The notes under the pieces are model-generated. The model worked only from the letters and a program-made list of their open reading frames with translations, had not been told where the DNA came from and ran no database searches. A stretch of 64,000 nt of DNA, from the NCBI GenBank assembly GCA_050248715.1, contig JBFWRV010000025.1, positions 802 to 64,801 of the forward strand, given 5' to 3'. The position numbers and the translations under genes are program-made. Below are positions 38,229 through 62,373 of the stretch, one piece after another. The stretch is from Hyphomicrobiaceae bacterium. Its GTDB lineage: Bacteria; Pseudomonadota; Alphaproteobacteria; Rhizobiales; Hyphomicrobiaceae. The first letter of the stretch is position 1; each line of letters opens with the position of its first letter.

Positions 38229-38305
38229 TGCCGCCGTTCAAAAGAGCGCGGCCGAACCACCGCGTCACACCCCGGGGCCTTACCTGACCTCTGATAGTGC
38301 GGCAA

Positions 38306-38330
38306 CGTCATCTCCGCGGAGGCGGAGACC
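38306..38330. repeat. Family E-like hairpin (CGTCATCTCCGCGGAGGCGGAGACC)
   Basis: Stem TCTCCGC/GCGGAGA. Confidence 0.5.
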
Positions 38331-38493
38331 CACGCCAGTCTCCATTTGCAGGATGAGCGTTGCGCGGATGCCCGCCGTGCCGGAGGCACGTCTTCGACGT
38401 GATGTGGGCATGACGTCCGTCATGAGGCAACGGGCCAAGAGACGGCGCTTGCTGATTGGGCGGATCGCAGTGCAGCCCGCTTCAGGTGGACCA

Positions 38494-40197
38494 TCAGCCA
38501 CGGATCAGATCGGCGATGCGCTCGGCCAGCATCAGGGTCGGCGTGTTGGTGTTGGCGCGCGGAATGGTGGGCATGAGCGAGGCATCGCAGACGCGCAAGC
38601 CTTCGAGTCCGTGCACCTTGCCGGCGCCGTCGCTCACCGCGAGGGGATCGCCGGCCGCGCCCATGCGGCAGGTGCCCGAGGCGTGCCACACGCCACCCAC
38701 GGAGGAGCCGATGAAGCGCGTCAGCGCGGCGTCGTCGGCGAGCAGGTGGTCGAGCCGCAGGCCGAGCGTCACGACGCTGTGGATCAGCCAGGGGCGCAGG
38801 CCGCCCGCGTGGTCCAGCATGGCCGCGAGCAGCCGCCGCTGGGTCGCGTTGAGTGCACCCGGGCCGGCAAGCCGCGCCACGCGCTCCGAGTAGCTGGTCG
38901 GGAATGCCGGGCCGCATTGGCGCCGCATCAGCGGGTCGGTGAGCAGCTTGGCGCCCAGCCGGAAGCCGGCTTTCAGCCGCTCCATGTCGCGCCAGTCGGA
39001 CAGCAGGCGGAAGTCGACCAGGGGCTCCTCGCGCGCGTCGCTGGAGCGCAGGCTGACGCTGCCGCGCGAATAGGATTTGTTGACCCAGATGAACAGGGTG
39101 CCGACGCGCTGGCCCACCTCGTGCCAGCCCGAGCGGGCGATCATGGCGAGATGCATGTCGCCTTCCGGCGAATCGGCGATTCCCGATGAGAAGCGCAGGA
39201 TGGCGTGATCGTGATGCTCGTTGAGGTCCGTGAGCCGGAACGCAGGTGGCAGATAGGTGGAGACCGCGGTCGAGGGATGCTCCATCAGGTTGCGGCCGAC
39301 GCCGGCCAGCGCGGCAACGACCGGAATATCCAGGCGCTGCAGATCCGCTGCTGGGCCGACCCCGCTGCGCATCAGCAGCGCCGGGGTATGGATCGCGCCG
39401 CAGCTGACGATGGTTTCGCCGGCCGTGAGCGTCATGGCTCCGCCGGCGCGGCCATTGGCCGGGACGACGACGGCGCCCGTGCAGCGCAGGCCGTCGAACA
39501 CCAGCCGCTCGGCCATCAGGTCGGTGCGCACCTCGAGATTGGGGCGCTGCCGCACCTCGGGCGTGAGATAGACGATCGACGCCGGCACCCGCTCGCCCGC
39601 GTCGCTCGTGGCGATGGCGCCGACGTAGACGCCGTCGGTCCATTCGCCGTTCTGGTCTGGCTTTGCGGGATGGCCGCGCGCCACCAGCGTCTCGCACAGC
39701 GCCTTCACGAACGGGGACATGCGTTCGGGCTTGATGCGCCGGATCGGAATGGGGCCGCTGCGACCGTGGTAATGGGGATCGTCAAAGTCGCAGTCGCGTT
39801 CGAGCTTGCGGAAGTAGGGCAGGGCGGCGTCCCAGGACCAGCCCGCGGCGCCCAGCGCGCCCCACTCGTCGTAGTCGCCGGGGGCGCCGCGGTTGGCCAC
39901 CATGGCGTTGACCGCCGAGCCGCCGCCGAGCACCCGGCCCTGCTCGTAGCGGCGCGGCGCGCGGCTGTCGGTGTTGCCGAGGGGCGCCCCCATGTAGGCG
40001 GTGAGCGCGCCCCAGATGTTGTCGGGATCGAGAAAGGCGCGACCGGGATAGCGGGTGCGGATCGTGTCCGGCATGGTCTCGGGCGTCAGGTCGCGCCCCG
40101 CCTCGACGAGGGTGACCTTGTTGCGAGGATTTTCCGACAGGCGCGCGGCCAGGACGCAGCCGGCGGAGCCGCCGCCGAGCACAAGGTAGTCTTGCAT
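38494..40197 (-). CDS. GMC family oxidoreductase (choline-dehydrogenase-like flavoprotein)
   Basis: DYLVLGGGSAGCVLAARLSE FAD motif, GGGSAVNAM, and C-terminal HASGTCRMG. Confidence 0.9.
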   Translation of the reverse strand: MQDYLVLGGGSAGCVLAARLSENPRNKVTLVEAGRDLTPETMPDTIRTRYPGRAFLDPDNIWGALTAYMGAPLGNTDSRAPRRYEQGRVLGGGSAVNAMVANRGAPGDYDEWGALGAAGWSWDAALPYFRKLERDCDFDDPHYHGRSGPIPIRRIKPERMSPFVKALCETLVARGHPAKPDQNGEWTDGVYVGAIATSDAGERVPASIVYLTPEVRQRPNLEVRTDLMAERLVFDGLRCTGAVVVPANGRAGGAMTLTAGETIVSCGAIHTPALLMRSGVGPAADLQRLDIPVVAALAGVGRNLMEHPSTAVSTYLPPAFRLTDLNEHHDHAILRFSSGIADSPEGDMHLAMIARSGWHEVGQRVGTLFIWVNKSYSRGSVSLRSSDAREEPLVDFRLLSDWRDMERLKAGFRLGAKLLTDPLMRRQCGPAFPTSYSERVARLAGPGALNATQRRLLAAMLDHAGGLRPWLIHSVVTLGLRLDHLLADDAALTRFIGSSVGGVWHASGTCRMGAAGDPLAVSDGAGKVHGLEGLRVCDASLMPTIPRANTNTPTLMLAERIADLIRG

Positions 40198-40739: not shown

Positions 40740-41681
40740 ATGGCAAGCTTGGCCGCCTTCGGGCTGGACGTCGGCATCTACGGCGCCACGGCCGAGCCCG
40801 AGACGATCCTGCGGCTCGCCCGGCATGCGGAGGAGGCCGGCTTCGACTCGATCTGGCTTGCCGATCACGTGGTCTTCCCCGTCTCGTATGCCTCGCGCTA
40901 CCCCTACAGCGCCGGCGGCGCCTTCCCGGCGCAACTGTCCGAGCCCTTGATGGAGCCGATCGCCACCATGGGCGTGCTCGTCGGCGCCACGCGGCGCGTC
41001 CGCATCGGCACGGCCGTCCTGGTGATGCCCTACCGCAATCCCCTGCTGCTTGCGCGCATGCTGGTGACGCTCGACCGCTTCTCCGGCGGCCGCATCGTGC
41101 TGGGCGCCGGGGTGGGCTGGCTGGAGGAGGAGTTCAAGGCTCTCGACAGCTTCGACTTCAAGAAGCGCGGCCGCGTGACCGACGAGTATATCGAGATCTT
41201 CAAGGCCATCTCGGCCGGCGGCGAGGTCGGCTATCAGGGCGAGACCTACGCCTTCGAGCCCGTTTACTCGTCGCCCGGTTCGGTGCAGCGCCCGCATCCG
41301 CCAATCCTGATCGGTGGCATTGCCGACGCCGCGCTGCGCCGTGTCGTGCGTCACGGCGACGGATGGCTCGCCGTGTTTGCGCCGCCGGCAGCCTTGCCGG
41401 AGCGCCTGGGCGTGCTGCGCCGCCTTGCCGAGGAGGCCGGGCGGCCGTTCCGAAATCTCTCGCTCATCTACAAGCTGTTTCTCCAGATCGGCGAGGCGAA
41501 GCGGGGCCCCGATGGCGCACGGGAGACCGGCACCGGCTCGGCCGCCGACATCGCCGACGACGTGCGCCGGCTGTTCGACCTCGGCTTCCAAAAGATCATC
41601 GTGCGCTGCCGCGGGGCCAGCGCGGCCGACGTGATGGACCAGGTTGCGCGCTTTTCCGACACGGTGTTGCCGGCGGTGTAG
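40740..41681 (+). CDS. Luciferase-like (LLM class) flavin/F420-type oxidoreductase
   Basis: AEEAGFDSIWLADHVVFP, RIGTAVLVMPYRNP, RIVLGAGVGWLEEEF. Confidence 0.85.
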   Translation: MASLAAFGLDVGIYGATAEPETILRLARHAEEAGFDSIWLADHVVFPVSYASRYPYSAGGAFPAQLSEPLMEPIATMGVLVGATRRVRIGTAVLVMPYRNPLLLARMLVTLDRFSGGRIVLGAGVGWLEEEFKALDSFDFKKRGRVTDEYIEIFKAISAGGEVGYQGETYAFEPVYSSPGSVQRPHPPILIGGIADAALRRVVRHGDGWLAVFAPPAALPERLGVLRRLAEEAGRPFRNLSLIYKLFLQIGEAKRGPDGARETGTGSAADIADDVRRLFDLGFQKIIVRCRGASAADVMDQVARFSDTVLPAV

Positions 41682-41698
41682 GCGATGGCTCGCCCGCT

Positions 41699-41825
41699 GT
41701 CCTGCCGGGCAAGGGCGCCAGCCCGAGAGCCGGAGCCCAGGGCAGCACGTGGTGCGCACGGAACGCGCGGTTCCTGGGTTCCGGATATTTCGCTATCGCG
41801 AAATTCCGGAATGACGGCAACCGGA
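41699..41825. repeat. REP/MITE-like element, family A
   Basis: Near-identical core to the 7139 copy (GCCAGCCCGAGAGCCGGAGCCCAGGG ... CCTGGGTTCCGGATATTTCGCTATCGCGAAATTCCGGAATGAC). Confidence 0.8.
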
Positions 41826-41982
41826 GCTGACGCGGAGCCATAACTGAGCTCCCGTTCAACGAAGGCGTTGGGGCCACGCGGTGCGGCTGCGTGAGATGCA
41901 TGCAACGGCTGCAAGAATGCGGTTTGACGCTGGCGTTGCTGCTTAGCACGATGGGGTCAACGACAAACCCAGAGGACGCCCA

Positions 41983-43074
41983 ATGGCCAAGACGAAGTTC
42001 GGCATATTCAGCCTCAGCCAGTTCCCCGATCTCTCCCGTGTGGTGGAGAGCTTCGACGACGATCTCTCCTTCTTCGAGCTGGCGGAGAAGCTGGGCTACG
42101 ACAAGGTCTGGATCGCCGAGCATCTCTTCTCCACCTACGGGCTCGTCACCTCGACCCAGGTCTATGCCGCGGCCATCGCCCAGCGCACCAAGAAGCTGCG
42201 CATCGGCATGGCCGTGTGCGCGATTCCCTTCAACCATCCCTTGCGCACCGCCTCCGACTTCGCCCTTGTCGACATCCTCTCGCACGGCCGGCTCGACTTC
42301 GGCGTCGGCCGCGCCTACCAGCCGCACGAGTTCGTCGGCCTCGGCGTGCCCATGGACAAGAGCCGCGAGATGCTGGCCGAAGGCCTCGACATCGTGTTGA
42401 AGTCGTGGACGCAGGAGAAGATCACCTACCAGGGCAAGTTCTGGACCATCCCCGAGCCGGTCGAGGTGCTGCCCAAGCCCGTGCAGCAGCCCTATCCGCC
42501 CGTCTACCAGGCTACCATCAGTCCCGAAAGCTTCGAGCAGGCGGCCAGGGCCGGCATCCACATCCAGATGGCCTCGCCCTTCACCTATCGCACCTACCGC
42601 GAGACGTGGATGGAGGAGCTGGAGAAGAGCTGCCGGCACTACGAAAAGGTGTGCCGCGATCTGGGGCGCGACCCGAATGCGGCGGAGCGCATGCTGCTGC
42701 TGCCGTTCTTTGTGCACGAGGACGGCAAGAAGGCGCAGGAGATCTACAAGAAGCACGTGGAGTGGTTCTACGCCAAGGTGACTGCCAATCAGCTGGCCGG
42801 CGCACCGCAGACGGGCGAGATCAAGGGTTACGAGCTCACGATGCGCGAGGGCAAGAAGACGCGCGAGATGGGCTACCTGTCGTTCGAGAAGCTGCACCAG
42901 TACGGCGCCTGCATCGCCGACGATCCCGAAACCTGCGTCGCCAAGCTCAGGGACATGAAGCGGCGGTTCGGCGTGACCGAGTTCGTGCTGTGGTTCAACA
43001 TCGGCGGCATCGACAAGGCGCACGTGGAGCGCGCCATGAAGCTGGCGGCCGAGAAGGTTCTGCCCAACGTGTAG
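41983..43074 (+). CDS. Luciferase-like (LLM class) flavin-dependent oxidoreductase/monooxygenase
   Basis: LGYDKVWIAEHLFS, RIGMAVCAIPFNHP, GRLDFGVGRAYQPHEF. Confidence 0.85.
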   Translation: MAKTKFGIFSLSQFPDLSRVVESFDDDLSFFELAEKLGYDKVWIAEHLFSTYGLVTSTQVYAAAIAQRTKKLRIGMAVCAIPFNHPLRTASDFALVDILSHGRLDFGVGRAYQPHEFVGLGVPMDKSREMLAEGLDIVLKSWTQEKITYQGKFWTIPEPVEVLPKPVQQPYPPVYQATISPESFEQAARAGIHIQMASPFTYRTYRETWMEELEKSCRHYEKVCRDLGRDPNAAERMLLLPFFVHEDGKKAQEIYKKHVEWFYAKVTANQLAGAPQTGEIKGYELTMREGKKTREMGYLSFEKLHQYGACIADDPETCVAKLRDMKRRFGVTEFVLWFNIGGIDKAHVERAMKLAAEKVLPNV

Positions 43075-43398
43075 GCAGTGCAGGGGGGGCCAGCCCGTTT
43101 CGCATGCGGGTGCGTCGCCCCTGCGCATTGCCAGCGGCGGGCCGACCGTCCCATTCGACGAACCAGGCGCCATCTCCGCGAAGGGGGAGATCGGCGCAAC
43201 TCGAGGTAGTTTGGCCTTTGCATGGTGCGGATGCCAGCTGCGAGCGTTGCGTGCGAATGGGCTGCGGGGCGGCCCGGTGCGCTCTGCTTCCCTGTCCGGG
43301 AAAAAGGCGTAATCTGACCGACGAGGGGTTCTTCCAGGGCCTGAAGCGGGAGCATTTCTGCCCCGCCAGCCGCCACCCCGACAAACCGGAGGAAGCGT

Positions 43399-45057
43399 AT
43401 GGGCAAGATCGACGGCGCCACCTTGATGGCGAAGAGCCTGAAGCAGCAGGGCGTGGACTATATGTTCGGCATCGTCGGCTTCCCGGTGCAGCCGATTGCC
43501 GCCGCGGCGCAGAAGGCCGGCATCAAGTACATCGGCATGCGCAACGAGCAGGCGGCCTCCTATGCGGCGCAGGCCGCGGGCTACCTCACCGGCCGCCCCG
43601 GCGCCTGCCTCGTGGTGTCCGGCCCCGGTGTCGTGCACGGCCTCGCGGGTCTCGCCAACGCACAGCAGAACTGCTGGCCGATGATCCTGATCGGCGGCGC
43701 CTCGCCCACCTACCAGAACGCCATGGGCGGCTTCCAGGAGGAGCGGCAGGTGCAGATCGCCTCGCCGTTCTGCAAGTTCGCGCACGCGGTGGAGCACACG
43801 AACCGTATCCCCTTCTATGTCGAGCTGGCCGTGCGCCAGTCGATATACGGCCGTCCCGGCGCCAGCTACCTCGACATGCCCGATGACATCATCCAGGGCC
43901 AGGTGGACGAGGAGAAGGTACCGATCCTGCCCAAGTGCCCCGAGCCGCCACGCACGCAGGCGATGCCGGAGGACGTGGATAAGGCTCTGAACGCCCTGCA
44001 GTCGGCCGAGCGACCGCTGGTGATCGTCGGCAAGGGCATGGCCTGGTCGCGCGCGGAGGACGAGGTGCGCGCGTTCATCGAGCGCACGCGCCTGCCGTTC
44101 CTGGCGTCTCCCATGGGCAAGGGCGTGCTCGACGACAACCATCCGCTTTCGGTCGGTGCCGCGCGCAGCCACGCGCTGAAAGAAGCCGACGTGATCTTCG
44201 TGATGGGCGCGCGGCTCAACTGGATCATGCACTACGGCCAGCCGCCGCGTTTCAACAAGAACGTGCGCGTGGTGCAGCTCGACATCGCGCCCGAGGCGAT
44301 CGGCAACAACGTGCCGACGGAAGTGGCGCTGGTGGGCGACGGCAAGGCCATCGTGGGCCAGCTCAACAAGGCATTGCAGAGCCGGCAGTGGTTCTATCCG
44401 GCCGACACGCCCTGGCACACCGCCATCAAGCAGAAGGCGGCCGACAACGCCAAGTCGATCCAGCCCATGATCGACGACAACTCGACGCCGACCAACTACT
44501 ACCGCGCGTTGAAGGACATCCGCGCCTGGGCACCGGCCAACGCCGTCATCATCGGCGAGGGTGCCAACACCATGGACATCGGCCGCACGCAGCTGCCGAA
44601 TGCCGCGCCGCGCCTGCGCCTCGACGCCGGCACCTATGGCACCATGGGGATCGGCATGGGGTTCGCCATCGCCGCGGCGGTGGTGCATCCCGACAAGCCG
44701 ATCATCTCGGTCTCGGGCGACAGCGCGCTCGGCTTCTCCGGCATGGAGATCGAGACGGCATGCCGCTACCGGCTGCCCGTGAAGGTCGTGGTGCTCAACA
44801 ACGGCGGCATCGGCAGCGGCGTGGAGGAGCTGCCCGCCAACCGCTTCGACAGCCCGCCGCGCACTCTGACCGTCGGCGCCCGCTACGACCGCATGATGGA
44901 AGCCTTCGGCGGCAAGGGCTGGTACATCGAGGATCCCAAGCACCTGCGCGCGGCCCTCGACGAGGCCATGAACTTCAAAGGTCCGGCGCTGGTGAACGTG
45001 AAGCTCCACCCCGACGCCACCCGCAAGCCGCAGGAGTTCCGCTGGCTGACGACGTAA
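43399..45057 (+). CDS. ThDP-dependent Oxc-family enzyme, 2-hydroxyacyl-CoA lyase-like paralogue
   Basis: Same fold order as oxc ([64 protein letters not shown]), but GGFQEERQ replaces the Oxc GDYEEMDQ segment. Confidence 0.85.
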   Translation: MGKIDGATLMAKSLKQQGVDYMFGIVGFPVQPIAAAAQKAGIKYIGMRNEQAASYAAQAAGYLTGRPGACLVVSGPGVVHGLAGLANAQQNCWPMILIGGASPTYQNAMGGFQEERQVQIASPFCKFAHAVEHTNRIPFYVELAVRQSIYGRPGASYLDMPDDIIQGQVDEEKVPILPKCPEPPRTQAMPEDVDKALNALQSAERPLVIVGKGMAWSRAEDEVRAFIERTRLPFLASPMGKGVLDDNHPLSVGAARSHALKEADVIFVMGARLNWIMHYGQPPRFNKNVRVVQLDIAPEAIGNNVPTEVALVGDGKAIVGQLNKALQSRQWFYPADTPWHTAIKQKAADNAKSIQPMIDDNSTPTNYYRALKDIRAWAPANAVIIGEGANTMDIGRTQLPNAAPRLRLDAGTYGTMGIGMGFAIAAAVVHPDKPIISVSGDSALGFSGMEIETACRYRLPVKVVVLNNGGIGSGVEELPANRFDSPPRTLTVGARYDRMMEAFGGKGWYIEDPKHLRAALDEAMNFKGPALVNVKLHPDATRKPQEFRWLTT

Positions 45058-45141
45058 GGCGCAGCGGGCGCGTCGGCCTTGGCCTCTCTTAACGGGGAGA
45101 GGTAGGGTCGGGAAAGGCTCCCGCCCTCAGCTCTTGGTTTA

Positions 45142-45230
45142 CCCCCCACCCCCGACCCCTCCCCGCAAGGGGGAGGGGAGGCCGGCGCCTGGATTGCGGA
45201 TATTTCGCTGACGCGAAATTCCGGAATGAC
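45142..45230. repeat. Composite: family C hairpin (45142-45180) + half family A element (45188-45230)
   Basis: CCCCTCCCCGCAAGGGGGAGGGG followed by GGATATTTCGCTGACGCGAAATTCCGGAATGAC. Confidence 0.75.
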
Positions 45231-45233
45231 AGC

Positions 45234-46133
45234 TCAGTCCAGCTCCAGGCCGTCCATGCCGGAGTTCTTGCGCACCTTGGCGAGCATGGCGCGCACCTGG
45301 GCGCCGGCTTCGGCGGGCTCGGCGACCTGCTTCACCTCGGCGCCGCGGCGCCAGCCCTCGCATACGGCGATGCGGCCGAAGCCCGCCTGGATGACGCGTC
45401 CCGTGATGTCCTGCGCCTCCTCGCTCGCCAGGTAGACGACCGTCGGCGAGACCCACTTGGGATCGCGCATGGCGCGCTCCTCGTCGGTGATCTGGCGCAG
45501 GCCCTCGGTCATGCGCGTCTGCGCGGAAGGAGAGATGGCGTTGACGGTGACGCCGTAGCGGCGCAGCTCGCGTGCGGCGATGATGGTGAAGGCAGCGATG
45601 CCGGCCTTGGCGGCGCCGTAGTTGGTCTGGCCGATGTTGCCGTAGATGCCCGACGTCGAACTCGTGTTGATGATGCGGCCCTTGACCGGCCCGCCGATCT
45701 TCTTGCTCTCGTCGCGCCAGTAGGCGGCAGCGTGGCGGGAGGGCGCGAACGTGCCCTTAAGGTGCACCTGGATCACCGCGTCCCACTCCGCCTCGTCCAT
45801 ATTGGCGAGCATGCGGTCGCGCAGGATGCCGGCGTTGTTGATGAGGATGTCGAGCCTGCCGAAGCGGGCGATGGCGGCGTCGACCATGGCCTTGGCGCCC
45901 TTCCAGCTGCTCACGTCCTCGCCATTGGTCATGGCCTCGCCGCCGGCCTTCTCGATCAGGGCGACCACCTCGTTGGCGGGCGACGCGTCCCGGCCCGAGC
46001 CGTCGAGACCGGCGCCGATGTCATTGACTACGACCTTGGCGCCGTGGGCTGCGAGCAGCAGCGCGTGCTCGCGCCCCAGCCCCCGTCCCGCACCCGTGAC
46101 AATTGCAACCCGTCCCTCGCACAAGCGACCCAT
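45234..46133 (-). CDS. SDR, MFE-2/(R)-3-hydroxyacyl-CoA dehydrogenase-like
   Basis: VTGAGRGLGREHAL, NNAGILRDRML, YGAAKAG. The ATG at 46133 comes after the upstream artefact. Confidence 0.85.
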   Translation of the reverse strand: MGRLCEGRVAIVTGAGRGLGREHALLLAAHGAKVVVNDIGAGLDGSGRDASPANEVVALIEKAGGEAMTNGEDVSSWKGAKAMVDAAIARFGRLDILINNAGILRDRMLANMDEAEWDAVIQVHLKGTFAPSRHAAAYWRDESKKIGGPVKGRIINTSSTSGIYGNIGQTNYGAAKAGIAAFTIIAARELRRYGVTVNAISPSAQTRMTEGLRQITDEERAMRDPKWVSPTVVYLASEEAQDITGRVIQAGFGRIAVCEGWRRGAEVKQVAEPAEAGAQVRAMLAKVRKNSGMDGLELD

Positions 46134-46372
46134 GGCACGCGCCTCCCGACTAGCTCTTGTGCTTTCAGTTTGTTTCGCGCGGCGATCCCGCGCAAGATAG
46201 GGCGACCACATCGTAAGGAGAAAGCCCCGTGGCCGAGGGGCGTGACCGCTGTTTGCCTTGAGGCGGGTACAGGAGCTTGCGGAGGGTGGATGGTCGCGGC
46301 AAACCCGACCGTGACACGTTCCGGACTGATCGCACCAGCGGGAGCACAAGGACCGCATGCAGGGGGATGCCG

Positions 46373-47554
46373 ATGAGCTATGACGCACCGTTCGCCGGGT
46401 TGAAGGTGATCGACCTGAGCCAGGGTGTGGCCGGTCCCTACTGCGGCATGCTGCTGGCCCAGCACGGCGCCGATGTCATCAAGGTGGAGCCCACGGGCGA
46501 GGGCGACTGGGCGCGCATGCTGGGGCGCCGCTATAGCGGTCACAGCGCCTACTCGATCCCCACCAACCTCGGCAAGCGTTCGATAGCGCTCGACCTGAAG
46601 GCGGCCGAGGGCAAGGAGGTGCTGTGGCGGCTGATCGCCGGTGCCGACGTCCTGCTCGAGGGCTTCCGTCCGGGCGTGCTCGACAAGCTGGGCTTCGGCT
46701 ACGCCGCGGTCTCTCAGCGCCAGCCGCGTATGCTTTATCTCTCCGTGTCGGGCTTCGGCCAGACCGGCCCGTTCGTCGGCCGTCCTGCCATGGACCCGGT
46801 GCTGCAGGCGTTCACCGGCCTGATGATGGACAACAAGGGCGAGGACGGCATTCCCCATCGCGTGCCGTTCGTCGTGATCGACATGTCGACCGCGCTCTAC
46901 GCGTTTCAGGCACTGTCCGCCGCCCTCTATGCCCGCCGCGACGAGACGCGGGGCAGGCACATTGCGGTCAGCCTTCTTGAGGCGGCGAGCGCGGTGCAGG
47001 TGATCCGGATGCTGATGGTGTACCTCGAGGGGGAGCAGGTCAGGCGCTCGATGCCGAGCGGCGTGTTCAGGACCGCCGACGGTTGGCTGCAGTTCCTGGT
47101 GGTGCGCCAGGACAGCTGGGTGAAGTTCTGCCGCATCGTTCTGGAAACGCCGGAGCTTGCCGCCGATCCGCGCTTTGCCGACGACGAGGGGCGCATGAGC
47201 AACGAGGCGGCGCTGATGGGCATCGTTCGCCCGGCGATCGCGACCCGGCCGACGGCCTACTGGGCCGAACGCCTCACCGAGGCCGACATCATGCACGAGC
47301 GGTTGAACGGCTTTCGCGAGTTCCTGCGCCAGCCGCAGGCGGAGGCGATCAATCTCGTGAGCTGGCTGCAGCCCGGCACGCCCGAGCCCATCCCCATTCC
47401 CAACATCGCGGGGCTCGTGCCGTTCGCCGCGGGCACGCCGCGCGGCACCACGCCCGTCCTCGGCCAGCACACGCGCGAGGTGCTCGGCGAGCACGGGTTC
47501 GCTGCTGCGGACATCGCCGGGCTCATCGCGCGCAAGGTCGTGGCGCAGGCGTAG
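46373..47554 (+). CDS. Family III CoA-transferase / alpha-methylacyl-CoA racemase superfamily protein
   Basis: [46 protein letters not shown]. Confidence 0.88.
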   Translation: MSYDAPFAGLKVIDLSQGVAGPYCGMLLAQHGADVIKVEPTGEGDWARMLGRRYSGHSAYSIPTNLGKRSIALDLKAAEGKEVLWRLIAGADVLLEGFRPGVLDKLGFGYAAVSQRQPRMLYLSVSGFGQTGPFVGRPAMDPVLQAFTGLMMDNKGEDGIPHRVPFVVIDMSTALYAFQALSAALYARRDETRGRHIAVSLLEAASAVQVIRMLMVYLEGEQVRRSMPSGVFRTADGWLQFLVVRQDSWVKFCRIVLETPELAADPRFADDEGRMSNEAALMGIVRPAIATRPTAYWAERLTEADIMHERLNGFREFLRQPQAEAINLVSWLQPGTPEPIPIPNIAGLVPFAAGTPRGTTPVLGQHTREVLGEHGFAAADIAGLIARKVVAQA

Positions 47555-47559
47555 CAGGC

Positions 47560-47646
47560 GTAGGTTGGGTCGAGCGGCAGCGACGACCCAACGCAAGTCG
47601 CGATCTCAACAAGTGTTGGGTCTGCGCTTCGCTTGACCCAACCTAC
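47560..47646. repeat. Palindromic repeat, family F (GTAGGTTGGGTC...GACCCAACCTAC)
   Basis: Two inverted arms, related in design to family B. Confidence 0.7.
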
Positions 47647-47663
47647 GGCTCAGCGCGGGATTC

Positions 47664-47699
47664 TCACCCCACCCCTATCCCTCCCCGTCAAGGGGAGGG
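47664..47699. repeat. Family C hairpin (CCCTCCCC-GTCA-AGGGGAGGG)
   Basis: Lies between the convergent CoA-transferase and hydrolase genes. Confidence 0.7.
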
Positions 47700-47722
47700 C
47701 ATCGCGTGCTGCAATCGCCTGC

Positions 47723-48880
47723 CTAGCTCTGACTGGCCCTGCGCAGAAATTCGAGCAGCAGGCGCGTGGTGGCCTCGGGCTGCTCCTGCTGCACCCAGTG
47801 GCCGGCGCCGTCGACGAGGTGGCAGGCGAGCATGCGCGTGCACGCCGTCCCCTGCATGCGCTCGAAAGCGCCGGGAGCCTGGTATACGCCCCAGTCGCTC
47901 TTGCCGGCGATGAAGCAGGAGGGCTGATCGATGGTCCGGCCGGCGAATACCTGCAGCTCGCTATCGAACAGGCCTGTGGTGCGCGTGCGATACCATTGCA
48001 GGCCGCCCTGGAAGCCCGTGCGGGTGTATTCCGCCCCGTACACGGCAAGCTCCGCCTCCGTGAGCCACCGGCAGGCCGCGATCTCGGCCGGGCTCGGCAT
48101 GTGCGGGGCCACCGTCTCCGCCATGGTCTGGCCCAGCTCCATGACGTAGTAGGTGGGCATCTTCGCAAGCTCGCCAGCTCTCCAACCCTCGAGCCCGTGG
48201 GGCGTGTTGGCTTTCCAGTCCGCGCTCTTGTGGTGGTAGTAGGCGCGCAGGAAGGCGTGGATGCCCTGCGCGCATTGCGTCATGTCGGTGTTGGCCGGCC
48301 GCGTCGAGTAGTACCAGTGGTAGTGCTTGCGCGGCGGGTTGAGCGCGGCGAGATCGGCGTGGACGTCGCGAGGGGCAGCCCTGGGCTTTGCCGGCGTGTC
48401 GGCGGTATCGAAGGGGATTGCGGGCGGCCCGGCGAACGGCGCGCTCATCAGAGTGACGGTGCGAAACACGTCCGGCCGGACCAGGGCGCACCACGCGGCA
48501 ACGGGCGAGCCGTAGTCGTGCCCGACGACGCCTGCCACCGAGCGATAGCCCAGCGCCGAGACGAGACCAAGCACGTCGCGGATCACGTTGAGCATACGGA
48601 ATGGGAAGAGGTCGCCGTCGTAGTCGGCCGTCCATCCGGTGGTGCGACCGTAGCCGCGCAGGTCCGGCGCGACGACGTGATAGCCGGCGGCCGCCAGAGG
48701 GACCATGACCCGGCGCCAGCTGTAGGCGAGCTCTGGAAAGCCGTGCAGGAGCAGCAGGCACGGGCGGCCCTTCTGCTCGAACCCCGCCTCCAGAACGTGC
48801 ATGCGGAGGCCGTTGGAGTTGTCGACGAAGCGCGCTCGGATGCCGGCCGGCAGCGTGGGCGTGGTGAGCGGTTCGATCAT
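47723..48880 (-). CDS. Alpha/beta hydrolase, epoxide-hydrolase type
   Basis: HGFPELAYSWRR oxyanion/HGxP motif and VVGHDYGS with an Asp nucleophile. Confidence 0.85.
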   Translation of the reverse strand: MIEPLTTPTLPAGIRARFVDNSNGLRMHVLEAGFEQKGRPCLLLLHGFPELAYSWRRVMVPLAAAGYHVVAPDLRGYGRTTGWTADYDGDLFPFRMLNVIRDVLGLVSALGYRSVAGVVGHDYGSPVAAWCALVRPDVFRTVTLMSAPFAGPPAIPFDTADTPAKPRAAPRDVHADLAALNPPRKHYHWYYSTRPANTDMTQCAQGIHAFLRAYYHHKSADWKANTPHGLEGWRAGELAKMPTYYVMELGQTMAETVAPHMPSPAEIAACRWLTEAELAVYGAEYTRTGFQGGLQWYRTRTTGLFDSELQVFAGRTIDQPSCFIAGKSDWGVYQAPGAFERMQGTACTRMLACHLVDGAGHWVQQEQPEATTRLLLEFLRRASQS

Positions 48881-48902
48881 TTCGACCTCCGGGCCTGCGA
48901 GG

Positions 48903-48982
48903 ATAGGGCGCAAAAGGCGAAGCCGCATTGCGCCGATAGGACCGGTGTTATCGGTGCCATGCACTTCGCTCTTGCACCCCAC
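48903..48982. repeat. Palindromic repeat, family B (two arms)
   Basis: ATAGGGCGCAAAAGGCGAAGCCGCATTGCGCCGAT ... ATCGGTGCCATGCACTTCGCTCTTGCACCCCAC. Confidence 0.75.
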
Positions 48983-48983
48983 G

Positions 48984-49847
48984 TCAACCGAGCGTCGCGC
49001 TTGCTTGCATGGCGATGGTGCCGCCAGGTGTCACGGCCCATACCTCGCAGGCTGCGCCGCTCTCAGTCGGCCGCCCCACCAGGTCAAAGGGTGCGCCTTC
49101 GAACAGCGGCGCGCGGGCGCGCATGCTGAAGGTGCGGATCGTGCGCCCGGGATTGTTGTCGCGCACGAAGTTGATCAGGCAGGTCTGGGTGAAGGGGCCG
49201 TGCACGACAAGGCCCGGATAGCCCTCCACCTCCATCGTGTAGGGGCGGTCGTAGTGAATGCGGTGCGGGTTGCCGGTCAGCGCCGAGAAGCGGAACAGCG
49301 CCACCGGCCCTGCCGTGATCGTGCGCCGCCAGGGCAATCCGGCGGGCACCTCCTCGCGCCTGGGGATGCCGCTCTTGGCGCCCGGCTTCACCTCCTCGCG
49401 GAATACGGTGTCTGTCTCCTCAGTGATGGCGAGGCCTCGCGGTGTCGAGATGCGTCTTGTCTGCGTGGTGAGGATCAGCGTGCCCGTGCTGCCGTCGCGC
49501 ACCTGCAGGTCGGTCAGCTCGATCTCGCGGCGCATCCGGTCGCCGACGACGAGTGGCTCATGGAACGTGAAGCGCGTTCCGGCATACATGCGCCGCGGCA
49601 GGGGCATTTGCGGCAGCACGCCGGCGCCTGTCGCGGTGCCGTCCGGGCCGAGCGAGGCAGTCGGGGCGGTCGAGAGGAAATAACCGATGTGCCAGCCGGG
49701 CGGGATCGGCTGCCCGTCGCCGGGTGCCGCCTCGGGGCGGTCGAAGGTGGCGACGAGCGCCTTGAGCGGTGCCTGCGTCGCCACGTCCTCGTCGCTGATC
49801 CTGGTGCCGATATGCCGGCGCAGGCTGGCGATATCGATGGCCGTCAT
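48984..49847 (-). CDS. MaoC-like double hot-dog (R)-specific enoyl-CoA hydratase/dehydratase
   Basis: PPGWHIGYF in the N-terminal FAS1-dehydratase-like half. The C-terminal MaoC half reads NPHRIHYDRPYTMEVEGYPGLVVHGPF. Confidence 0.8.
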   Translation of the reverse strand: MTAIDIASLRRHIGTRISDEDVATQAPLKALVATFDRPEAAPGDGQPIPPGWHIGYFLSTAPTASLGPDGTATGAGVLPQMPLPRRMYAGTRFTFHEPLVVGDRMRREIELTDLQVRDGSTGTLILTTQTRRISTPRGLAITEETDTVFREEVKPGAKSGIPRREEVPAGLPWRRTITAGPVALFRFSALTGNPHRIHYDRPYTMEVEGYPGLVVHGPFTQTCLINFVRDNNPGRTIRTFSMRARAPLFEGAPFDLVGRPTESGAACEVWAVTPGGTIAMQASATLG

Positions 49848-49875
49848 GGTTTGATCCTCTTGCTGCATGCGGGGT

Positions 49876-49989
49876 GTCATTCCGGCCGAGCGCGAGGCGC
49901 TTGAGCCGGAACCCAGGGCCACGAACAGCGTGCCGCCACCCAAGGCCCTGGGTCCCGGATATTTCGCTTGCGCGAAATTCCGGGATGAC
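49876..49989. repeat. REP/MITE-like element, family A
   Basis: GTCATTCCGG...GGAACCCAGGGCC...GGCCCTGGGTCCCGGATATTTCGC...GCGAAATTCCGGGATGAC. Confidence 0.8.
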
Positions 49990-49998
49990 AACGGTCGC

Positions 49999-50031
49999 AT
50001 CGGTGCAATGCGCTTCGCTTTTGCACCCTAC
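49999..50031. repeat. Single arm of repeat family B, overlapping the stop codon of the next gene
   Basis: ATCGGTGCAATGCGCTTCGCTTTTGCACCCTAC. The CTA at 50028-50030 is the TAG stop of the ACAD on the minus strand. Confidence 0.7.
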
Positions 50032-51266
50032 TTCTTCTTGCCCGTCGGCAACTTGTTGAAGGGCGCATCCTTGTCGACGCGCACGTCGGCGGGCAGGCCC
50101 AGCACGCGCTCGGCGATGATGTTGCGCATGATCTCGTCCGAGCCGCCGGCGATGCGCGAGGAGGGCGAGGTCATCAGGGTCTGCTGGAAGACCGCGGAGA
50201 TCGGGGCCACGTCCGGATCGGTGAGCACGCCGCCCTGCTCCATCAGGTCCATGGCGAAGGCGGCGATGCTCTGCAGCTTGGAGCCGTTCACGAGCTTCCC
50301 GATCGAGGATTCCGGCCCCGGGGTGTCGCCGCGCGATAGCGCCGTCATGGTGCGGAAGTGCGAATACTTGAGCCCCTGGGTCGAGACATACCAGTCGGCC
50401 AGCTTGTCGCGCACGCCATCGTTCTTGATGGCGGGGCCGTCGTCGAGCTCGATCCGGCGCGCCAGCTCGAAGATGTCCTCCACGCCCACGCTCATGCGCC
50501 CGCCGATGGTATAGCGCTCGTTCATCAGCGTGGTGAGCGAGACCTTCCAGCCGTCGCCCGGTAGCCCAAGCCGCTGGCTGTCGGGAATGCGCACGTCGGT
50601 GAAGAAGACCTCGTTGAAATGGGACTGGCCGGAGATCTGCTTGATCGGCCGGATCTCGATGCCGGGCGACTTCATGTCGAGGAAGAAGTAGGTCAGGCCC
50701 TTGTGCTTGGGCGCGGAGAAATCACTGCGCGTCACCAGCACGCCGTAGTCGCAGTAGTGCGCCCCGGAGGTCCAGGTCTTCTGGCCATTAATGACCCAGT
50801 CGTCGCCGTCGCGCTCGGCCCGTGTCCTGAGGCCGGCAAGGTCGGAGCCGGCGGCTGACTCGGAGAAGAGCTGGCACCACACCTCCTCGCCGCGCAGCGC
50901 CTTCCTTGCGTAGCGGTCGCGATGGGCCTGGGTGCCCCAGGTGCAGAGCGTGGGAATGCACATGCCGAGGCCGATGTCGAACAGGCCGCGCGGCACGGCA
51001 CACTTGGCCTCCTCCTGGTCGTAGATCACCTGCTGGATGGCGGTGCCGCCGCGCCCGCCCCAATCCTTCGACCAGGTGATGCCGGCATAGCCCGCGTCCG
51101 CCTTCAGCGCCTGCCAGTCCTTGGCCCACTGGCGGAACTTCGGGTCCTCGTTGCCGGCGCGATAGACCATGCCGGAGCCTGGCTCGCGACGCTTGGCGTT
51201 CTTGTCGAGGAAGGCGCGGGCGCCGGCGCGGAACTCGGCTTCCTCGGGGGTGTCTTCGAAGTCCAT
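50028..51266 (-). CDS. Acyl-CoA dehydrogenase (likely catalytic subunit of a tandem pair)
   Basis: 412 aa with LMNERYTIGG helix-G Glu and GGSDEIMRNIIAERVLGLP. Confidence 0.88.
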   Translation of the reverse strand: MDFEDTPEEAEFRAGARAFLDKNAKRREPGSGMVYRAGNEDPKFRQWAKDWQALKADAGYAGITWSKDWGGRGGTAIQQVIYDQEEAKCAVPRGLFDIGLGMCIPTLCTWGTQAHRDRYARKALRGEEVWCQLFSESAAGSDLAGLRTRAERDGDDWVINGQKTWTSGAHYCDYGVLVTRSDFSAPKHKGLTYFFLDMKSPGIEIRPIKQISGQSHFNEVFFTDVRIPDSQRLGLPGDGWKVSLTTLMNERYTIGGRMSVGVEDIFELARRIELDDGPAIKNDGVRDKLADWYVSTQGLKYSHFRTMTALSRGDTPGPESSIGKLVNGSKLQSIAAFAMDLMEQGGVLTDPDVAPISAVFQQTLMTSPSSRIAGGSDEIMRNIIAERVLGLPADVRVDKDAPFNKLPTGKKK

Positions 51267-51276
51267 GGTGCCCTCC

Positions 51277-52392
51277 CTAGAGCGGGGCGTTGGCGGTTTC
51301 GAGCTGGGTGATCAGGCGGTCCTTCCAGTGGCGTGTGCTGCCGAGCGTGAGGGAGAGCAGCTTGGCGCGGCGGTAGTAGAGGTGACAGTCGAACTCCCAG
51401 GTAAAGCCCATGCCGCCGTGCACCTGGATGTTCTCCTTCGCTGCCAGGAAGAACGCGTCGCCGGCGCAGATGCGGGCGGAGGCGGCGGCCACGGGGAGCT
51501 CCGGGGCGTCGCGCTCCAGCGCCCAGGCGCCATAGTAGGCATTGGAGCGGGCAAGCTCGGTCGCGACATAGACATCGGCGAGCTTATGCTTGATGGCCTG
51601 GAACGAGCCGATCGGGCGGCCGAAGGCGTAGCGCTCGAGCGCATAGTCGCGCGCGCTCTCGAGGCAGCGCTGCGCGCCGCCCACCTGCTCGAAGGCGAAG
51701 AGCACCGCGGCGCGGTCCTGCACGCGCTTGAGCAGGGCTTCCCCGCCGCCGGGCGCGCCGAGCGCCTCGGCGGGCGTGTTGGCGAAGCTGACGCGGGCGT
51801 GCGAGCGGCTGGGGTCGATCGTTTCGACGGGCTCGCGCGTGACGTCGGGAGCCTTCAGGTCGACGAGGGCAAGCGCCAGGCCGCGATCGCCCTGTGCGAC
51901 GACGACGGCGAAGTCGGCCACGTCGCCGTCGGGCACGGGAAGCTTCTCGCCGTTCAGCGCGCCGCCGCGAAAGGTCGTACGCAGCTTGCGGATGTCGGCC
52001 CTGCCGGGCCCCTCGGCGAGCGCCAGCGTGCCGATCGCCTCGCCGCTCGCGAGCTTCGGAAGCCACATCTTCTTCTGTACCTCGCTGCCGCCGGCGATGA
52101 TGGCCTCGGTGGCGAGGTAGACGGAAGAGGAGAAGGGTAGAGGCGCCAGCGATGCGCCCAGCTCCTCGGCCAGCACGCAAAGGCCGAGATGGCCGAGGCC
52201 GGCGCCGCCATGCTCCTCCGGAATTGCCGCCGCGGTCCAGCCCATGGCGGCAATCTCCTTCCAGAGCGCCTTGTCGTAGGGCTCCGGCCCTTCGAGGATG
52301 CGCCGCACCGTTGCCGGAGGGCTCTTCTCGCGCAGGAACCGGCGCGCCTGCTCGCGCAGCTCTTTCAGGTCATCGCTGAAATCGAAGTTCAT
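51277..52392 (-). CDS. Acyl-CoA dehydrogenase family protein (possible non-catalytic partner)
   Basis: 371 aa with IQVHGGMGFTWEFDCHLYYRRAK. There is a 10-nt gap to the downstream ACAD. Confidence 0.85.
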   Translation of the reverse strand: MNFDFSDDLKELREQARRFLREKSPPATVRRILEGPEPYDKALWKEIAAMGWTAAAIPEEHGGAGLGHLGLCVLAEELGASLAPLPFSSSVYLATEAIIAGGSEVQKKMWLPKLASGEAIGTLALAEGPGRADIRKLRTTFRGGALNGEKLPVPDGDVADFAVVVAQGDRGLALALVDLKAPDVTREPVETIDPSRSHARVSFANTPAEALGAPGGGEALLKRVQDRAAVLFAFEQVGGAQRCLESARDYALERYAFGRPIGSFQAIKHKLADVYVATELARSNAYYGAWALERDAPELPVAAASARICAGDAFFLAAKENIQVHGGMGFTWEFDCHLYYRRAKLLSLTLGSTRHWKDRLITQLETANAPL

Positions 52393-52648
52393 GGGCCAGT
52401 GCGTTCCCTTCGTGCCGCATCGTTGTGCGGGTCGTTCGCGCGGCCCCGTGGGATGCGTGCAGCACGAGCTTAGTGCAATTCCGTGGGCGGGCGAAAGCAC
52501 GAATCACCTGGCGCGCGATACGCCACCGGCCGCGCCTTGGATCGACACAATCAGCGAACGGTTTTGCCAACCCGGCTATCCGAGGGTTGGAAGAAGAAGA
52601 ATGCTACCCTAAATTTGGACGTACGAGCCGCACCGGCGAGGCCCGCCC

Positions 52649-52867
52649 ATGATCGTCATTTCCAGGAACGGCAAGACCACGGTCATCACGGGATGGCGGG
52701 CGTGGCTGATCGGCGCCGCCGCGGTTCTCCTTATCACGGTCGTTCTGGCGCTGATGTTCGTCCTGGTACTCGGCGCTGCTGTCACGCTCACCCTCGTCCT
52801 CTCGATTGCCGTGCCCGTGGCGATCGGCGTGGCACTCATAGCCTCCGTGTTCCGGCCACGGGCGTAG
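52649..52867 (+). CDS. Small membrane protein, unknown function
   Basis: 72 aa with two TM helices (WLIGAAAVLLITVVLALMFVLVL / LVLSIAVPVAIGVALIASVF). Confidence 0.4.
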   Translation: MIVISRNGKTTVITGWRAWLIGAAAVLLITVVLALMFVLVLGAAVTLTLVLSIAVPVAIGVALIASVFRPRA

Positions 52868-52874
52868 ATTGGCC

Positions 52875-52954
52875 GTAGGGCGCAACAAAACCCAAGCCGT
52901 ATGCGCCGAAACGACGCTCGCCACAGCGCAATGCGCTCCGCTTTTGCGCCCCAC
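52875..52954. repeat. Palindromic repeat, family B
   Basis: GTAGGGCGCAAC...GCGCAATGCGCTCCGCTTTTGCGCCCCAC. Confidence 0.7.
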
Positions 52955-52967
52955 GGTTGCCGCTCCG

Positions 52968-53717
52968 TCACTTCGCGTCGTGAAAGATGATGCCGAGCGT
53001 GTGCCGCGTGCCGAAGCGCAGGCGGCTCACACCGTGCCGCATGGTGACGCGATAGACGCCGCGCGTGCCTGCCACGGGTCGGTGATGGACCGGGAAGATC
53101 ACGCCCTCACCCTGGGTCAACGGCACCACCTCCGCGCGCGACTGCATGCGCGGACGCTGCTCGGTCAGCACGAACTCGCCGCCGGCGAAGTCGGTGCCCG
53201 GCTCGGACAGCAGGAACGCCACCTGCAGGGGAAACACGTGTGCGCCGTAGAGGTCCTGGTGCAGGCAATTGTAGTCGCCGGGGCCGTACTGCAGCAGCAG
53301 CGGCGTCGGTTTCGTCTGGCCCGCAGCGTGGCAGCGCGCAAGAAAGGCCGAATGCTCGTCGGGATAGCGCACATCGATGCGCATCGCCTCGTTCCAGCGG
53401 TTGGCGATGCGGGCGAGCGGCGGATAGAGCGCCTCGCGCAGGGCGGCGATTGCGTCGGGCAGCGGATAGGCGAAGTATTTGTATTCGCCGCGCCCGAAGC
53501 CGTGGCGCGCCATGCTGATGCGGCTGCGGAAAAGCCTTTCGGAGGCGTAGCTGGCCGCCAGGCGGGCACATGCGTCCTCGGTCAGCACGCGTCCCGTAAC
53601 CGCGCAGCCGTGTGCGTCGAGGTCGGCCGCAAGCCCGTCCCAGTCGAGTGCCGCGATCCGGCCGCTGATCGGGGAGGATGATTTCGCGTCCGCACGCTCT
53701 GCCCGCATTGCACGCAT
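52968..53717 (-). CDS. 2OG-Fe(II) oxygenase family protein
   Basis: H-x-D in NCLHQDLYG, distal His in TMRHGVSRL, and a double-stranded beta-helix core (GGEFVLTEQ). Confidence 0.75.
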   Translation of the reverse strand: MRAMRAERADAKSSSPISGRIAALDWDGLAADLDAHGCAVTGRVLTEDACARLAASYASERLFRSRISMARHGFGRGEYKYFAYPLPDAIAALREALYPPLARIANRWNEAMRIDVRYPDEHSAFLARCHAAGQTKPTPLLLQYGPGDYNCLHQDLYGAHVFPLQVAFLLSEPGTDFAGGEFVLTEQRPRMQSRAEVVPLTQGEGVIFPVHHRPVAGTRGVYRVTMRHGVSRLRFGTRHTLGIIFHDAK

Positions 53718-62141: not shown

Positions 62142-62254
62142 GTCATCCCGGCCGGAGCGCGAAGCGCGCAGAGCCGGGACCCAGGGCCACAAGCACCATT
62201 GTTCTCCGCGGCCCTGGGTCCCGGATCTTCGCCTTCGGCGAATTCCGGGATGAC
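62142..62254. repeat. REP/MITE-like element, family A
   Basis: GTCATCCCGG...GGGACCCAGGGCC...GGCCCTGGGTCCCGGATCTTCGCCTTCGGCGAATTCCGGGATGAC. Confidence 0.8.
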
Positions 62255-62373
62255 AGTGAGGAGAGTTGATCGGAGTTTACTCGAGCGACTCCAGTGCGCA
62301 TGGGGCTGCGGGTTGCGGCGATCGGCGGAATGGCGCAAAGCTCGGACCACCCAACAAGCTGCGGACGCCGATC

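Follow-up and report, generated by a model that had tools for sequence, protein, structure and literature searches.

We examined a 64-kb window (~67% G+C) of contig JBFWRV010000025.1 from a Hyphomicrobiaceae bacterium, and within it a region of ten genes at 40740-53717 that includes a gene for a putative 2-hydroxyacyl-CoA lyase (HACL). A sequence-only reading of this DNA had proposed that the region encodes one route, a bacterial counterpart of peroxisomal alpha-oxidation coupled to R-specific beta-oxidation. Our comparisons with more than 100 related loci indicate that the 13-kb stretch is probably not one pathway but four units with separate inheritance that came to lie side by side in this lineage. 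These would be a pair of luciferase-like oxidoreductase genes (LLM1-LLM2), a solitary, strongly conserved HACL, six-eighths of a beta-oxidation-type module, and a PF09859 gene standing as an unrelated neighbor. The one-pathway reading is unsupported because its members are not co-conserved, whether loci are centered on HACL, on the module or on LLM2. The genes of the region, and the gap between SDR and CoAT3, are:

40740..41681, + strand: LLM1, luciferase-like oxidoreductase of the TIGR03619 (F420_Rv2161c) family, PF00296; first of the LLM1-LLM2 pair
41983..43074, + strand: LLM2, luciferase/alkanal-monooxygenase-like flavin oxidoreductase, PF00296
43399..45057, + strand: HACL, thiamine diphosphate (ThDP)-dependent RuHACL-type 2-hydroxyacyl-CoA lyase/synthase, predicted to release formyl-CoA
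45234..46133, - strand: SDR, short-chain dehydrogenase/reductase, putative MFE-2-type (3R)-hydroxyacyl-CoA dehydrogenase; assigned to the conserved module
46134..46372: divergent intergenic region of 239 bp; thiolase-like and DUF35 genes stand at the equivalent position in relatives
46373..47554, + strand: CoAT3, family III CoA-transferase (CaiB/YfdE/SUGCT-like), PF02515; assigned to the conserved module
47723..48880, - strand: hydrolase, epoxide-hydrolase-type alpha/beta hydrolase; last in an ACADb-ACADa-MaoC-hydrolase operon
48984..49847, - strand: MaoC, double hot-dog MaoC-type hydratase, itaconyl-CoA-hydratase-like, PF13452
50028..51266, - strand: ACADa, large subunit (ChsE4/PimC-like) of a presumed heteromeric acyl-CoA dehydrogenase (ACAD)
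51277..52392, - strand: ACADb, small subunit (ChsE5/PimD/IpdE2-like)
52968..53717, - strand: protein with PF09859 (Oxygenase-NA) as its sole Pfam match

A codon-position G+C filter gave a single clear gene in each interval between 40.7 and 53.7 kb, and all ten open reading frames (ORFs) lie where the sequence-only reading had placed them, with the folds it had named (Pfam and NCBIfam). In addition to PF09859, Pfam finds Bac_luciferase twice, three ThDP domains, adh_short, CoA_transf_3, Abhydrolase_1, FAS1_DH_region and two ACADs. Compared between the window and the orthologues of an NCBI assembly (L116), lengths are 299 aa for SDR, 287 for MaoC, and 412 and 371 for the ACADs; the CoA-transferase has 393 residues versus 391 and the hydrolase 385 versus 387. 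Because these lengths match, the start codons chosen earlier appear to be right. The alignment with the LLM1 orthologue begins at Met14, and the LLM1 start is therefore placed at 40740. The genes span at least five transcription units, in line with the earlier estimate of at least four.

HACL carries the TPP_enzyme_N, M and C domains (PF02776, PF00205 and PF02775; E 1e-30 to 1e-38). In the PDB, RuHACL 6xn8 and 8vza/8vzc/8vzf match it with 848-851 bits (E ~1e-254), whereas the oxalyl-CoA decarboxylase (Oxc) structures 2c31/2q27/7ayg reach 425-434 bits, half the HACL/HACS score. The actinobacterial lyase 7pt1 follows with 224 bits (E 2e-65), and acetolactate synthases do not exceed 198 bits. The window's own Oxc, 41% identical to HACL, scores 1020.5 bits on the Oxc equivalog model TIGR03254 (cut-off 739.4), whereas HACL stays below the cut-off with 534.5 bits. 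Likewise, HACL remains under the cut-off of NF058623 for actinobacterial 2-hydroxyisobutyryl-CoA lyase (290.9 versus 600 bits) and far under those of the acetolactate synthase models. Residues F112-Q113, G472 and E477 match RuHACL, whereas Y-E and Tyr occupy the corresponding places in the window's Oxc; the equivalents of the carboxylate-binding Tyr120, Glu121 and Tyr483 of Oxc are Phe, Gln and Gly in HACL. The roles of Q113 and E477 in RuHACL, and of Y483-type residues in OfOXC, are described in PMC8760513.

This ThDP enzyme can hardly be another Oxc, then, or an acetolactate-synthase-type protein, with no connection to 2-hydroxyacyl-CoAs. HACL does pass the looser NCBIfam model PRK09259 'oxalyl-CoA decarboxylase' (577 versus a cut-off of 557), and its relatives bear that name in several sources, but the failed equivalog, the low identity to the window's Oxc, the doubled score with HACL/HACS structures, the replaced carboxylate-binding residues and the poor acetolactate synthase scores all argue the other way. 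To judge from these scores and residues, 43399-45057 encodes a genuine RuHACL-type 2-hydroxyacyl-CoA lyase, a further member of an already known group of enzymes. The sequence-only reading had called the enzyme HACL-like and asked whether it belongs with HACL, Oxc or 2-hydroxyisobutyryl-CoA lyase; the first placement holds, and the outcome that it had named as fatal, a true Oxc or acetolactate-synthase type, did not come true.

In passages of PMC8760513 that cite Chou et al. 2019, RuHACL cleaves 2-hydroxyoctadecanoyl-CoA to heptadecanal and formyl-CoA, and joins formyl-CoA to short aldehydes and ketones. Since such cleavage was demonstrated for RuHACL, to which the window HACL is ~73% identical, we infer the same reaction here: a 2-hydroxyacyl-CoA would be cleaved at ThDP to formyl-CoA and an aldehyde or ketone one carbon shorter. 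Relative to a metagenome contig of the same species (L083), the ratio of nonsynonymous to synonymous substitution (dN/dS) of HACL is 0.03.

Gene neighborhoods of HACL were surveyed by scanning one genome per GTDB species. Of at least 569 relatives, the best 80 (73-90% identical) were taken with 10 kb of flank on each side. A tblastn search with 24 window proteins found orthologues of at least 50% identity for the hydrolase in 9 loci, for LLM1 in one and for LLM2 in one, and for no others. A family-level comparison by phmmer over 930 called genes, which would also reveal replacement by non-orthologues, placed MaoC, PF09859 and fhs in none of the 80 loci. ACAD-family genes occur in 7 of the 80 and make up 1.1% of flanking genes, about the share expected by chance. 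Family III CoA-transferases are found in 29 loci, 25 of which have one within 5 kb; LLM-family genes are found in 12, epoxide-hydrolase-type hydrolases in 9-10, GMC oxidoreductases in 5, and TauD-family 2-oxoglutarate (2OG) dioxygenases in 10 (within 5 kb). Among 115 immediate neighbors of HACL, Pfam identifies 17 CoA_transf_3 proteins, 12 alpha/beta hydrolases, 7 SDRs and 5 D-2-hydroxyacid dehydrogenases. The transferases adjacent to HACL elsewhere are 36-44% identical to the window's Frc and 27-30% to CoAT3, and score 361-389 bits on Frc models, under the cut-offs of 442 and 504. The sequence-only reading had itself proposed synteny in other genomes as a check and a lack of co-conservation as grounds for giving it up; the gene set proves not to be co-conserved.

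The closest HACLs are those of L081 and L082 (91%) and L001 (90%). A context shared with the window, which might be expected at such identity, was ruled out: their genes are HACL, DAO, a Frc-like transferase and AA_synth. L001 (JBLNBZ010000102.1), which has the closest HACL in the genome collection, is labeled a Bacteroidota metagenome-assembled genome and has neighbors of alphaproteobacterial type; the label is probably a binning error.

The module was found through a MaoC-centered metagenome scan and hydrolase-centered look-ups. In L116 the order is ACADb-ACADa-MaoC-hydrolase, then a convergent CoAT3, an SCP2-type thiolase (PF22691) and a DUF35 protein, then SDR. The window is collinear with L116 for six of these genes at 83-91% protein identity (ACADb 87%, ACADa 91%, MaoC 83%, hydrolase 84%, CoAT3 88%, SDR 88%). 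The same or a partial module occurs in L084, L086, L090, L091, L094, L097, L098, L109, L117 and L120. CoAT3 orthologues of 77-89% identity are convergent with MaoC/hydrolase in L116 and in eight of these loci (L084, L086, L090, L091, L097, L098, L109 and L117), and at least 10 loci have a hydrolase of 71-84% identity beside MaoC. On this gene order, SDR, CoAT3, the hydrolase, MaoC, ACADa and ACADb appear as six genes of a conserved eight-gene module; these six of the ten genes would be clustered because they descend from that module, and not by chance. HACL is present in none of ~12 informative module loci apart from the same-species L083, and in none of five hydrolase-centered loci (74-84% identity). 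Likewise, the PF09859 gene is found in no MaoC-centered locus except L083. The adjacency of HACL to the module thus appears to be a single lineage-specific event.

The idea that the hydrolase is a bridge between HACL and the module is weakened by the five hydrolase-centered loci. L119 does have a ThDP gene near the hydrolase and L086 one near MaoC, both from other families (24-26% identical to HACL). The one in L086 (8243-9973, 24%) is benzoylformate-decarboxylase-like and stands directly upstream of MaoC, where other loci have the ACAD pair.

In L116 and L117 the DUF35 protein (zf-ChsH2 + OB_ChsH2_C) and the PF22691 thiolase both lie between CoAT3 and SDR, at 7937-9524 in L116; PDB matches of the relatives' thiolase include Ltp2 6ok1 and the benzoylsuccinyl-CoA thiolase BbsB 7pxp. 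Only 239 bp separate CoAT3 and SDR in the window, tblastn with the relatives' two proteins found no homologue in the whole 64 kb, and the pair is not at the L083 locus either. Comparison of these loci marks 46134-46372 as the apparent deletion scar of the module, the thiolase/DUF35 pair having been lost at this locus in the window's lineage. Purifying selection still acts on the module genes that are left, so the cleavage step is presumably performed by an enzyme encoded at another locus of the genome.

The single proteins of the module were compared with solved structures. SDR is closest to 2et6, the (3R)-hydroxyacyl-CoA dehydrogenase of C. tropicalis (E 3e-96), also matches HSD17B4 (1zbq/1gz6), and has the motifs NNAGILRD (residues 99-106) and YGAAK, which bears out its earlier description as MFE-2-type. 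The hydrolase is nearest to sEH 6unw, M. tuberculosis EphB 2zjf/2e3j and EphA 5cw2 and has the motifs HGFP, GHDYG and GHW, as expected of the epoxide-hydrolase type named before. The tandem ACADs, 10 bp apart, also stood up, and appear to be of a heteromeric type in which each matches a different chain of 6wy8/6wy9 and 4x28: ACADa matches Tcur3483 (6wy9) and 4x28_A, and ACADb the partner chains Tcur3481 (6wy8_A) and 4x28_D. We take these structures to be the steroid side-chain dehydrogenase ChsE4-ChsE5. NCBIfam matches to PimC and PimD are weak (pimC_large 202 bits for ACADa, pimD_small 141 bits for ACADb); ACADb scores 190 bits on IpdE2.

Two further assignments survived in part. CoAT3 has the family III fold (PF02515), which had been compared with the racemase AMACR; its best PDB matches are YfdE 4hl6, formyl-CoA transferase 10uh and SUGCT 9br6, and all 21 matches at E <= 1e-30 are CoA-transferases or uncharacterized CaiB/BaiF-family proteins, with no racemase among them. 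MaoC has the double hot-dog fold (PF13452); its only significant PDB relatives are itaconyl-CoA hydratase (Ich) 8khg/8huc (E 2e-47), and MFE-2 hydratase-2, with which it had been compared, is absent from its matches at E <= 1e-3.

From these likenesses the module would activate an acid by CoA transfer through the family III transferase, dehydrogenate it with the heteromeric ACAD, hydrate it with the Ich-like MaoC, oxidize it with the (3R)-specific SDR and, in relatives, cleave it with the SCP2-type thiolase and its DUF35 partner. Its substrate may be a dicarboxylic acid with a substituent, or some other polar acid, to judge from the Ich-like hydratase, the likeness of the transferase to YfdE and SUGCT, and the transporters of TctABC or ABC type that stand beside the module in relatives.

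The LLM pair and the PF09859 gene make up the rest of the region. Both LLM products, recognized as such in the sequence-only reading, carry PF00296. LLM1 scores 230.5 bits on the F420-dependent family TIGR03619 (cut-off 166.9) and has a dN/dS of 0.13 versus L083; LLM2 best matches 7bip, 8cbb (alkanal monooxygenase alpha) and LuxA 1brl. Orthologues of the two (71% and 86%) are adjacent in L121/L122, beside fabA, fur and ykuD and without HACL, and two further LLM2 orthologues are solitary. None of the four LLM2-centered loci contains HACL, and a role for LLM2 as a conserved HACL partner that oxidizes the aldehyde is rejected as a general rule.

The gene at 52968-53717, which had been read as a 2OG-Fe(II) oxygenase, is present as claimed: PF09859 (Oxygenase-NA) is the only Pfam match, with no hit to PhyH or TauD, and NCBIfam gives none. 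This agrees with the caveat, already made, that the protein is no close relative of PhyH. The TauD proteins of L053 and L012 likewise found no match in the window by tblastn.

Contig L083 shows 94-96% DNA identity to the window and is collinear with 37.7-60 kb. All region genes are intact between the two, with dN/dS of 0.03-0.15. This low dN/dS and the collinearity indicate that the genes are functional and their arrangement stable within the lineage. One difference lies beside LLM1, where the choline-dehydrogenase-like GMC gene at 38494-40197 (- strand) is absent from L083 (window 38229-40154, with ~180 bp instead), a strain-level insertion or deletion. The GMC oxidoreductase had been considered as an MpdB-like diol dehydrogenase feeding HACL, and its absence from L083 excludes it as an integral part.

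How do these results bear on a pathway that unites the ten genes? Peroxisomal alpha-oxidation with MFE-2 beta-oxidation uses PhyH, HACL1, AMACR and MFE-2. The sequence-only reading saw an analogous route, from a 2OG oxygenase to a 2-hydroxyacyl-CoA, through HACL to the R-specific ACAD/MaoC/SDR set, with formyl-CoA passed to frc and fhs. All the folds do lie within 13 kb, HACL is genuine and SDR of the MFE-2 type, and the oxc, frc and fhs genes upstream are real. We nonetheless consider such a route very unlikely, since MaoC, PF09859 and fhs are in none of the 80 HACL loci and the module lacks HACL in all ~12 informative loci, where it has a thiolase of its own. Furthermore, the oxygenase is a PF09859 protein, the transferase does not appear racemase-like, the hydratase is Ich-like, and the cluster, split over five or more transcription units, lacks aldehyde dehydrogenase, ligase and thiolase. 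The last three absences had been conceded beforehand: none is encoded among the ten genes, and the tblastn search for the thiolase was negative.

A looser alternative, still unlikely though less so, is a partial coupling specific to the lineage, in which HACL works with some immediate neighbors only. CoAT3 might transfer CoA from formyl-CoA to 2-hydroxy acids, the epoxide-hydrolase-type enzyme might supply a diol or hydroxy-acid precursor, or LLM2 might oxidize the aldehyde product in place of the missing aldehyde dehydrogenase. Family III transferases are the commonest HACL neighbors, LLM-family genes recur in 12 of 80 loci, and the nearest structures of LLM2 include alkanal monooxygenase and LuxA; but the transferases beside HACL elsewhere resemble Frc and not CoAT3, CoAT3 orthologues always accompany the MaoC module, the hydrolase of the window falls in the subgroup found beside MaoC, and neither the hydrolase- nor the LLM2-centered loci contain HACL. 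Several observations do weigh against independent inheritance of the four units. The arrangement is kept in L083, the sole other strain, with every gene under purifying selection, although proximity is in itself weak evidence of a link. Nine genomes have a hydrolase of the same subfamily, 62-65% identical, near HACL. In eight of them it lies immediately upstream, with flanking genes of at least three unrelated kinds; L012 adds a fourth context, with the hydrolase 2.3 kb downstream of HACL. L030 and L038 have an SDR, a paralogous ACAD pair (36-39% identity) and a Frc-like transferase beside HACL, L030 has an LLM2 orthologue (71%) directly downstream of it, and in L097 MaoC, hydrolase and CoA-transferase are joined with an LLM gene and further epoxide hydrolases. 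In addition, every related locus was viewed only 10 kb to either side of the query gene, and many of the 80 species are akin, so that the counts are not independent and overstate the number of events. On balance, we favor the juxtaposition of four units.

Bacterial alpha-oxidation around HACL, which the sequence-only reading proposed for the window, is not supported there and finds some support in other genomes, with Frc-like transferases and TauD-type dioxygenases. The Frc-like transferase is the usual HACL partner in other Alphaproteobacteria, which suggests a CoA-neutral cycle parallel to the Frc/Oxc oxalate cycle: formyl-CoA and a 2-hydroxy acid would yield formate and a 2-hydroxyacyl-CoA, which HACL would then cleave. 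A fuller version, which we put forward only tentatively, is that RuHACL-type lyases run an ATP-independent alpha-oxidation cycle for 2-hydroxy acids. Formyl-CoA released by HACL would be used by the Frc-like transferase to activate the next hydroxy acid, the hydroxy acids would come from TauD-type 2OG dioxygenases, epoxide-hydrolase-type enzymes or D-2-hydroxyacid dehydrogenases, and the window HACL would take part in this system without a linked partner gene, using a transferase from another locus (46373 or frc at 13392). In the literature searched, no description of a native role of RuHACL-type enzymes was found.

In L053 (6982-11659), L012 (8744-15042), L056, L057, L060 and L062, a TauD-family 2OG dioxygenase gene is divergent from an epoxide-hydrolase-type hydrolase and HACL; the L012 set additionally includes a Frc-like transferase, an MmgE/PrpD protein and a dicarboxylate symporter. 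By gene content these loci look more like an alpha-hydroxylation and lyase route than the window does. A conserved protein of ~470-490 aa with no Pfam match lies directly 3' of HACL in L053 (11682-13151) and L065 (11731-13134).

The frc and fhs genes that had been noted about 30 kb upstream are genuine; oxc, frc and fhs lie 26-32 kb upstream of the region in a complete oxalate unit (7280-17554) of transporter, regulator, oxc, frc and fhs:

7280-10565, - strand: TctCBA-type transporter genes
10699-11520: GntR/FCD regulator
11657-13402: oxc, 1020 bits on the Oxc equivalog
13392-14684: frc, 715 bits on the Frc equivalog (cut-off 504)
15770-17554: fhs

A second pair of family III CoA-transferase and ACAD genes, at 4622-7102, has succinate-glutarate-transferase-like and acryloyl/glutaryl-CoA-dehydrogenase-like scores. 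The true start of this ACAD is probably downstream of the annotated one, because a G/C-rich repeat (5877-5914) lies inside the long ORF. A small ORF at 52649-52867 (+ strand), between ACADb and the PF09859 gene, has a dN/dS of 0.42 versus L083 and is probably not a gene.

Short palindromes resembling repetitive extragenic palindromic (REP) elements, of at least three families, are scattered over the window, mostly between genes. They occupy most intergenic gaps of the region, as the sequence-only reading had observed, and sit in two gaps within the ACADa-MaoC-hydrolase operon. The core of one family is TTCCGGATATTTCGC...GCGAAATTCCGGAATGACA; another family reads CCCCTCCCCGCAAGGGGGAGGGG and the third GGGCGCAAAAGGCGAAGCCGCATTGCGCC. 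A scan for promoters and terminators gave the counts expected from shuffled sequence and was uninformative. The repeats are:

REP-like repeats, first set: 7202-7250, 19706-19788, 41746-41819, 45186-45237, 49945-49993, 62210-62263
REP-like repeats, second set: 5877-5914, 45143-45180, 47665-47702
REP-like repeats, third set: 17721-17796, 48905-48936, 49999-50031, 52926-52955

If the four units are independent, the peroxisome-like toolkit would be an accident of gene order in one lineage, which is worth knowing before transcriptomics or knock-outs are undertaken. The survey also offers a modest lead on the natural role of proteobacterial HACLs, mostly from other genomes and not from the window, namely the recurrent Frc-like CoA-transferases, epoxide-hydrolase-type hydrolases and TauD-type dioxygenases around them. 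HACL enzymes are heavily used in synthetic one-carbon metabolism. Furthermore, it defines a conserved, uncharacterized eight-gene module with an epoxide-hydrolase-like protein in soil bacteria, the named relatives being Alphaproteobacteria, of which the window appears to hold a naturally thiolase-less version still under selection.

The closest known enzymes are RuHACL (Rhodospirillales bacterium URHD0017, 6XN8) and the HACS structures 8VZA-8VZK. The window HACL aligns with them over its full length with about three-quarters of residues identical, and shares with RuHACL Q113, E477 and a short C-terminus. About a third of related genomes have an adjacent Frc-like transferase, whereas the window HACL has none. 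AcHACL, the actinobacterial 2-hydroxyisobutyryl-CoA lyase (7PT1), catalyzes the same class of reaction, giving formyl-CoA and a carbonyl compound, but is a distant relative (E 2e-65; NF058623 291 versus 600), and the window HACL lacks its extended C-terminal lid (552 aa versus the 612-residue 7pt1 chain). The Frc/Oxc oxalate pair of O. formigenes, represented in the window by oxc and frc, has the ThDP fold and the formyl-CoA product in common with HACL. In other genomes HACL, like Oxc, has a family III transferase as its partner, and this likeness is what suggests an analogous CoA-recycling cycle. HACL differs from Oxc in overall sequence (41% identity) and in the carboxylate-binding residues, and its transferase partners elsewhere stay below the Frc cut-offs. 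With peroxisomal alpha-oxidation the window shares a HACL homologue and an MFE-2-type (3R)-hydroxyacyl-CoA dehydrogenase, whereas its oxygenase is not PhyH, its family III protein looks transferase-like and not AMACR-like, its hydratase looks Ich-like and not like hydratase-2, and its genes are not co-inherited.

For the module, the nearest parallels are degradation clusters of other kinds. An itaconate/methylsuccinate cluster consists of Ict, Ich, Ccl and methylsuccinyl-CoA dehydrogenase (PMC12290011). Like it, the module groups a CoA-transferase, an ACAD and an Ich-like MaoC, Ich being the nearest solved relative of MaoC; unlike it, the module has neither a citramalyl-CoA lyase nor an MmgE/PrpD isomerase. 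An (S)-citramalyl-CoA lyase next to MaoC was looked for, and none of the ten genes has a Pfam match to a lyase-type family. SDR, together with the thiolase of relatives, implies that a secondary 3-hydroxyl is oxidized and the product then cleaved by thiolysis, not by a lyase. The benzylsuccinate Bbs pathway (BbsEF, G, H, CD, AB) and the steroid side-chain set ChsE/ChsH/Hsd4A/Ltp2 share the logic of the relatives' module: family III transferase, ACAD (heteromeric, ChsE4-ChsE5-like), hydratase, SDR, and a thiolase-like protein with DUF35. The module hydratase is of the MaoC/Ich type, whereas Bbs has the crotonase BbsH. Furthermore, the module differs from both in an operon that embeds an epoxide-hydrolase-type protein, and the window's copy in having neither thiolase nor DUF35.

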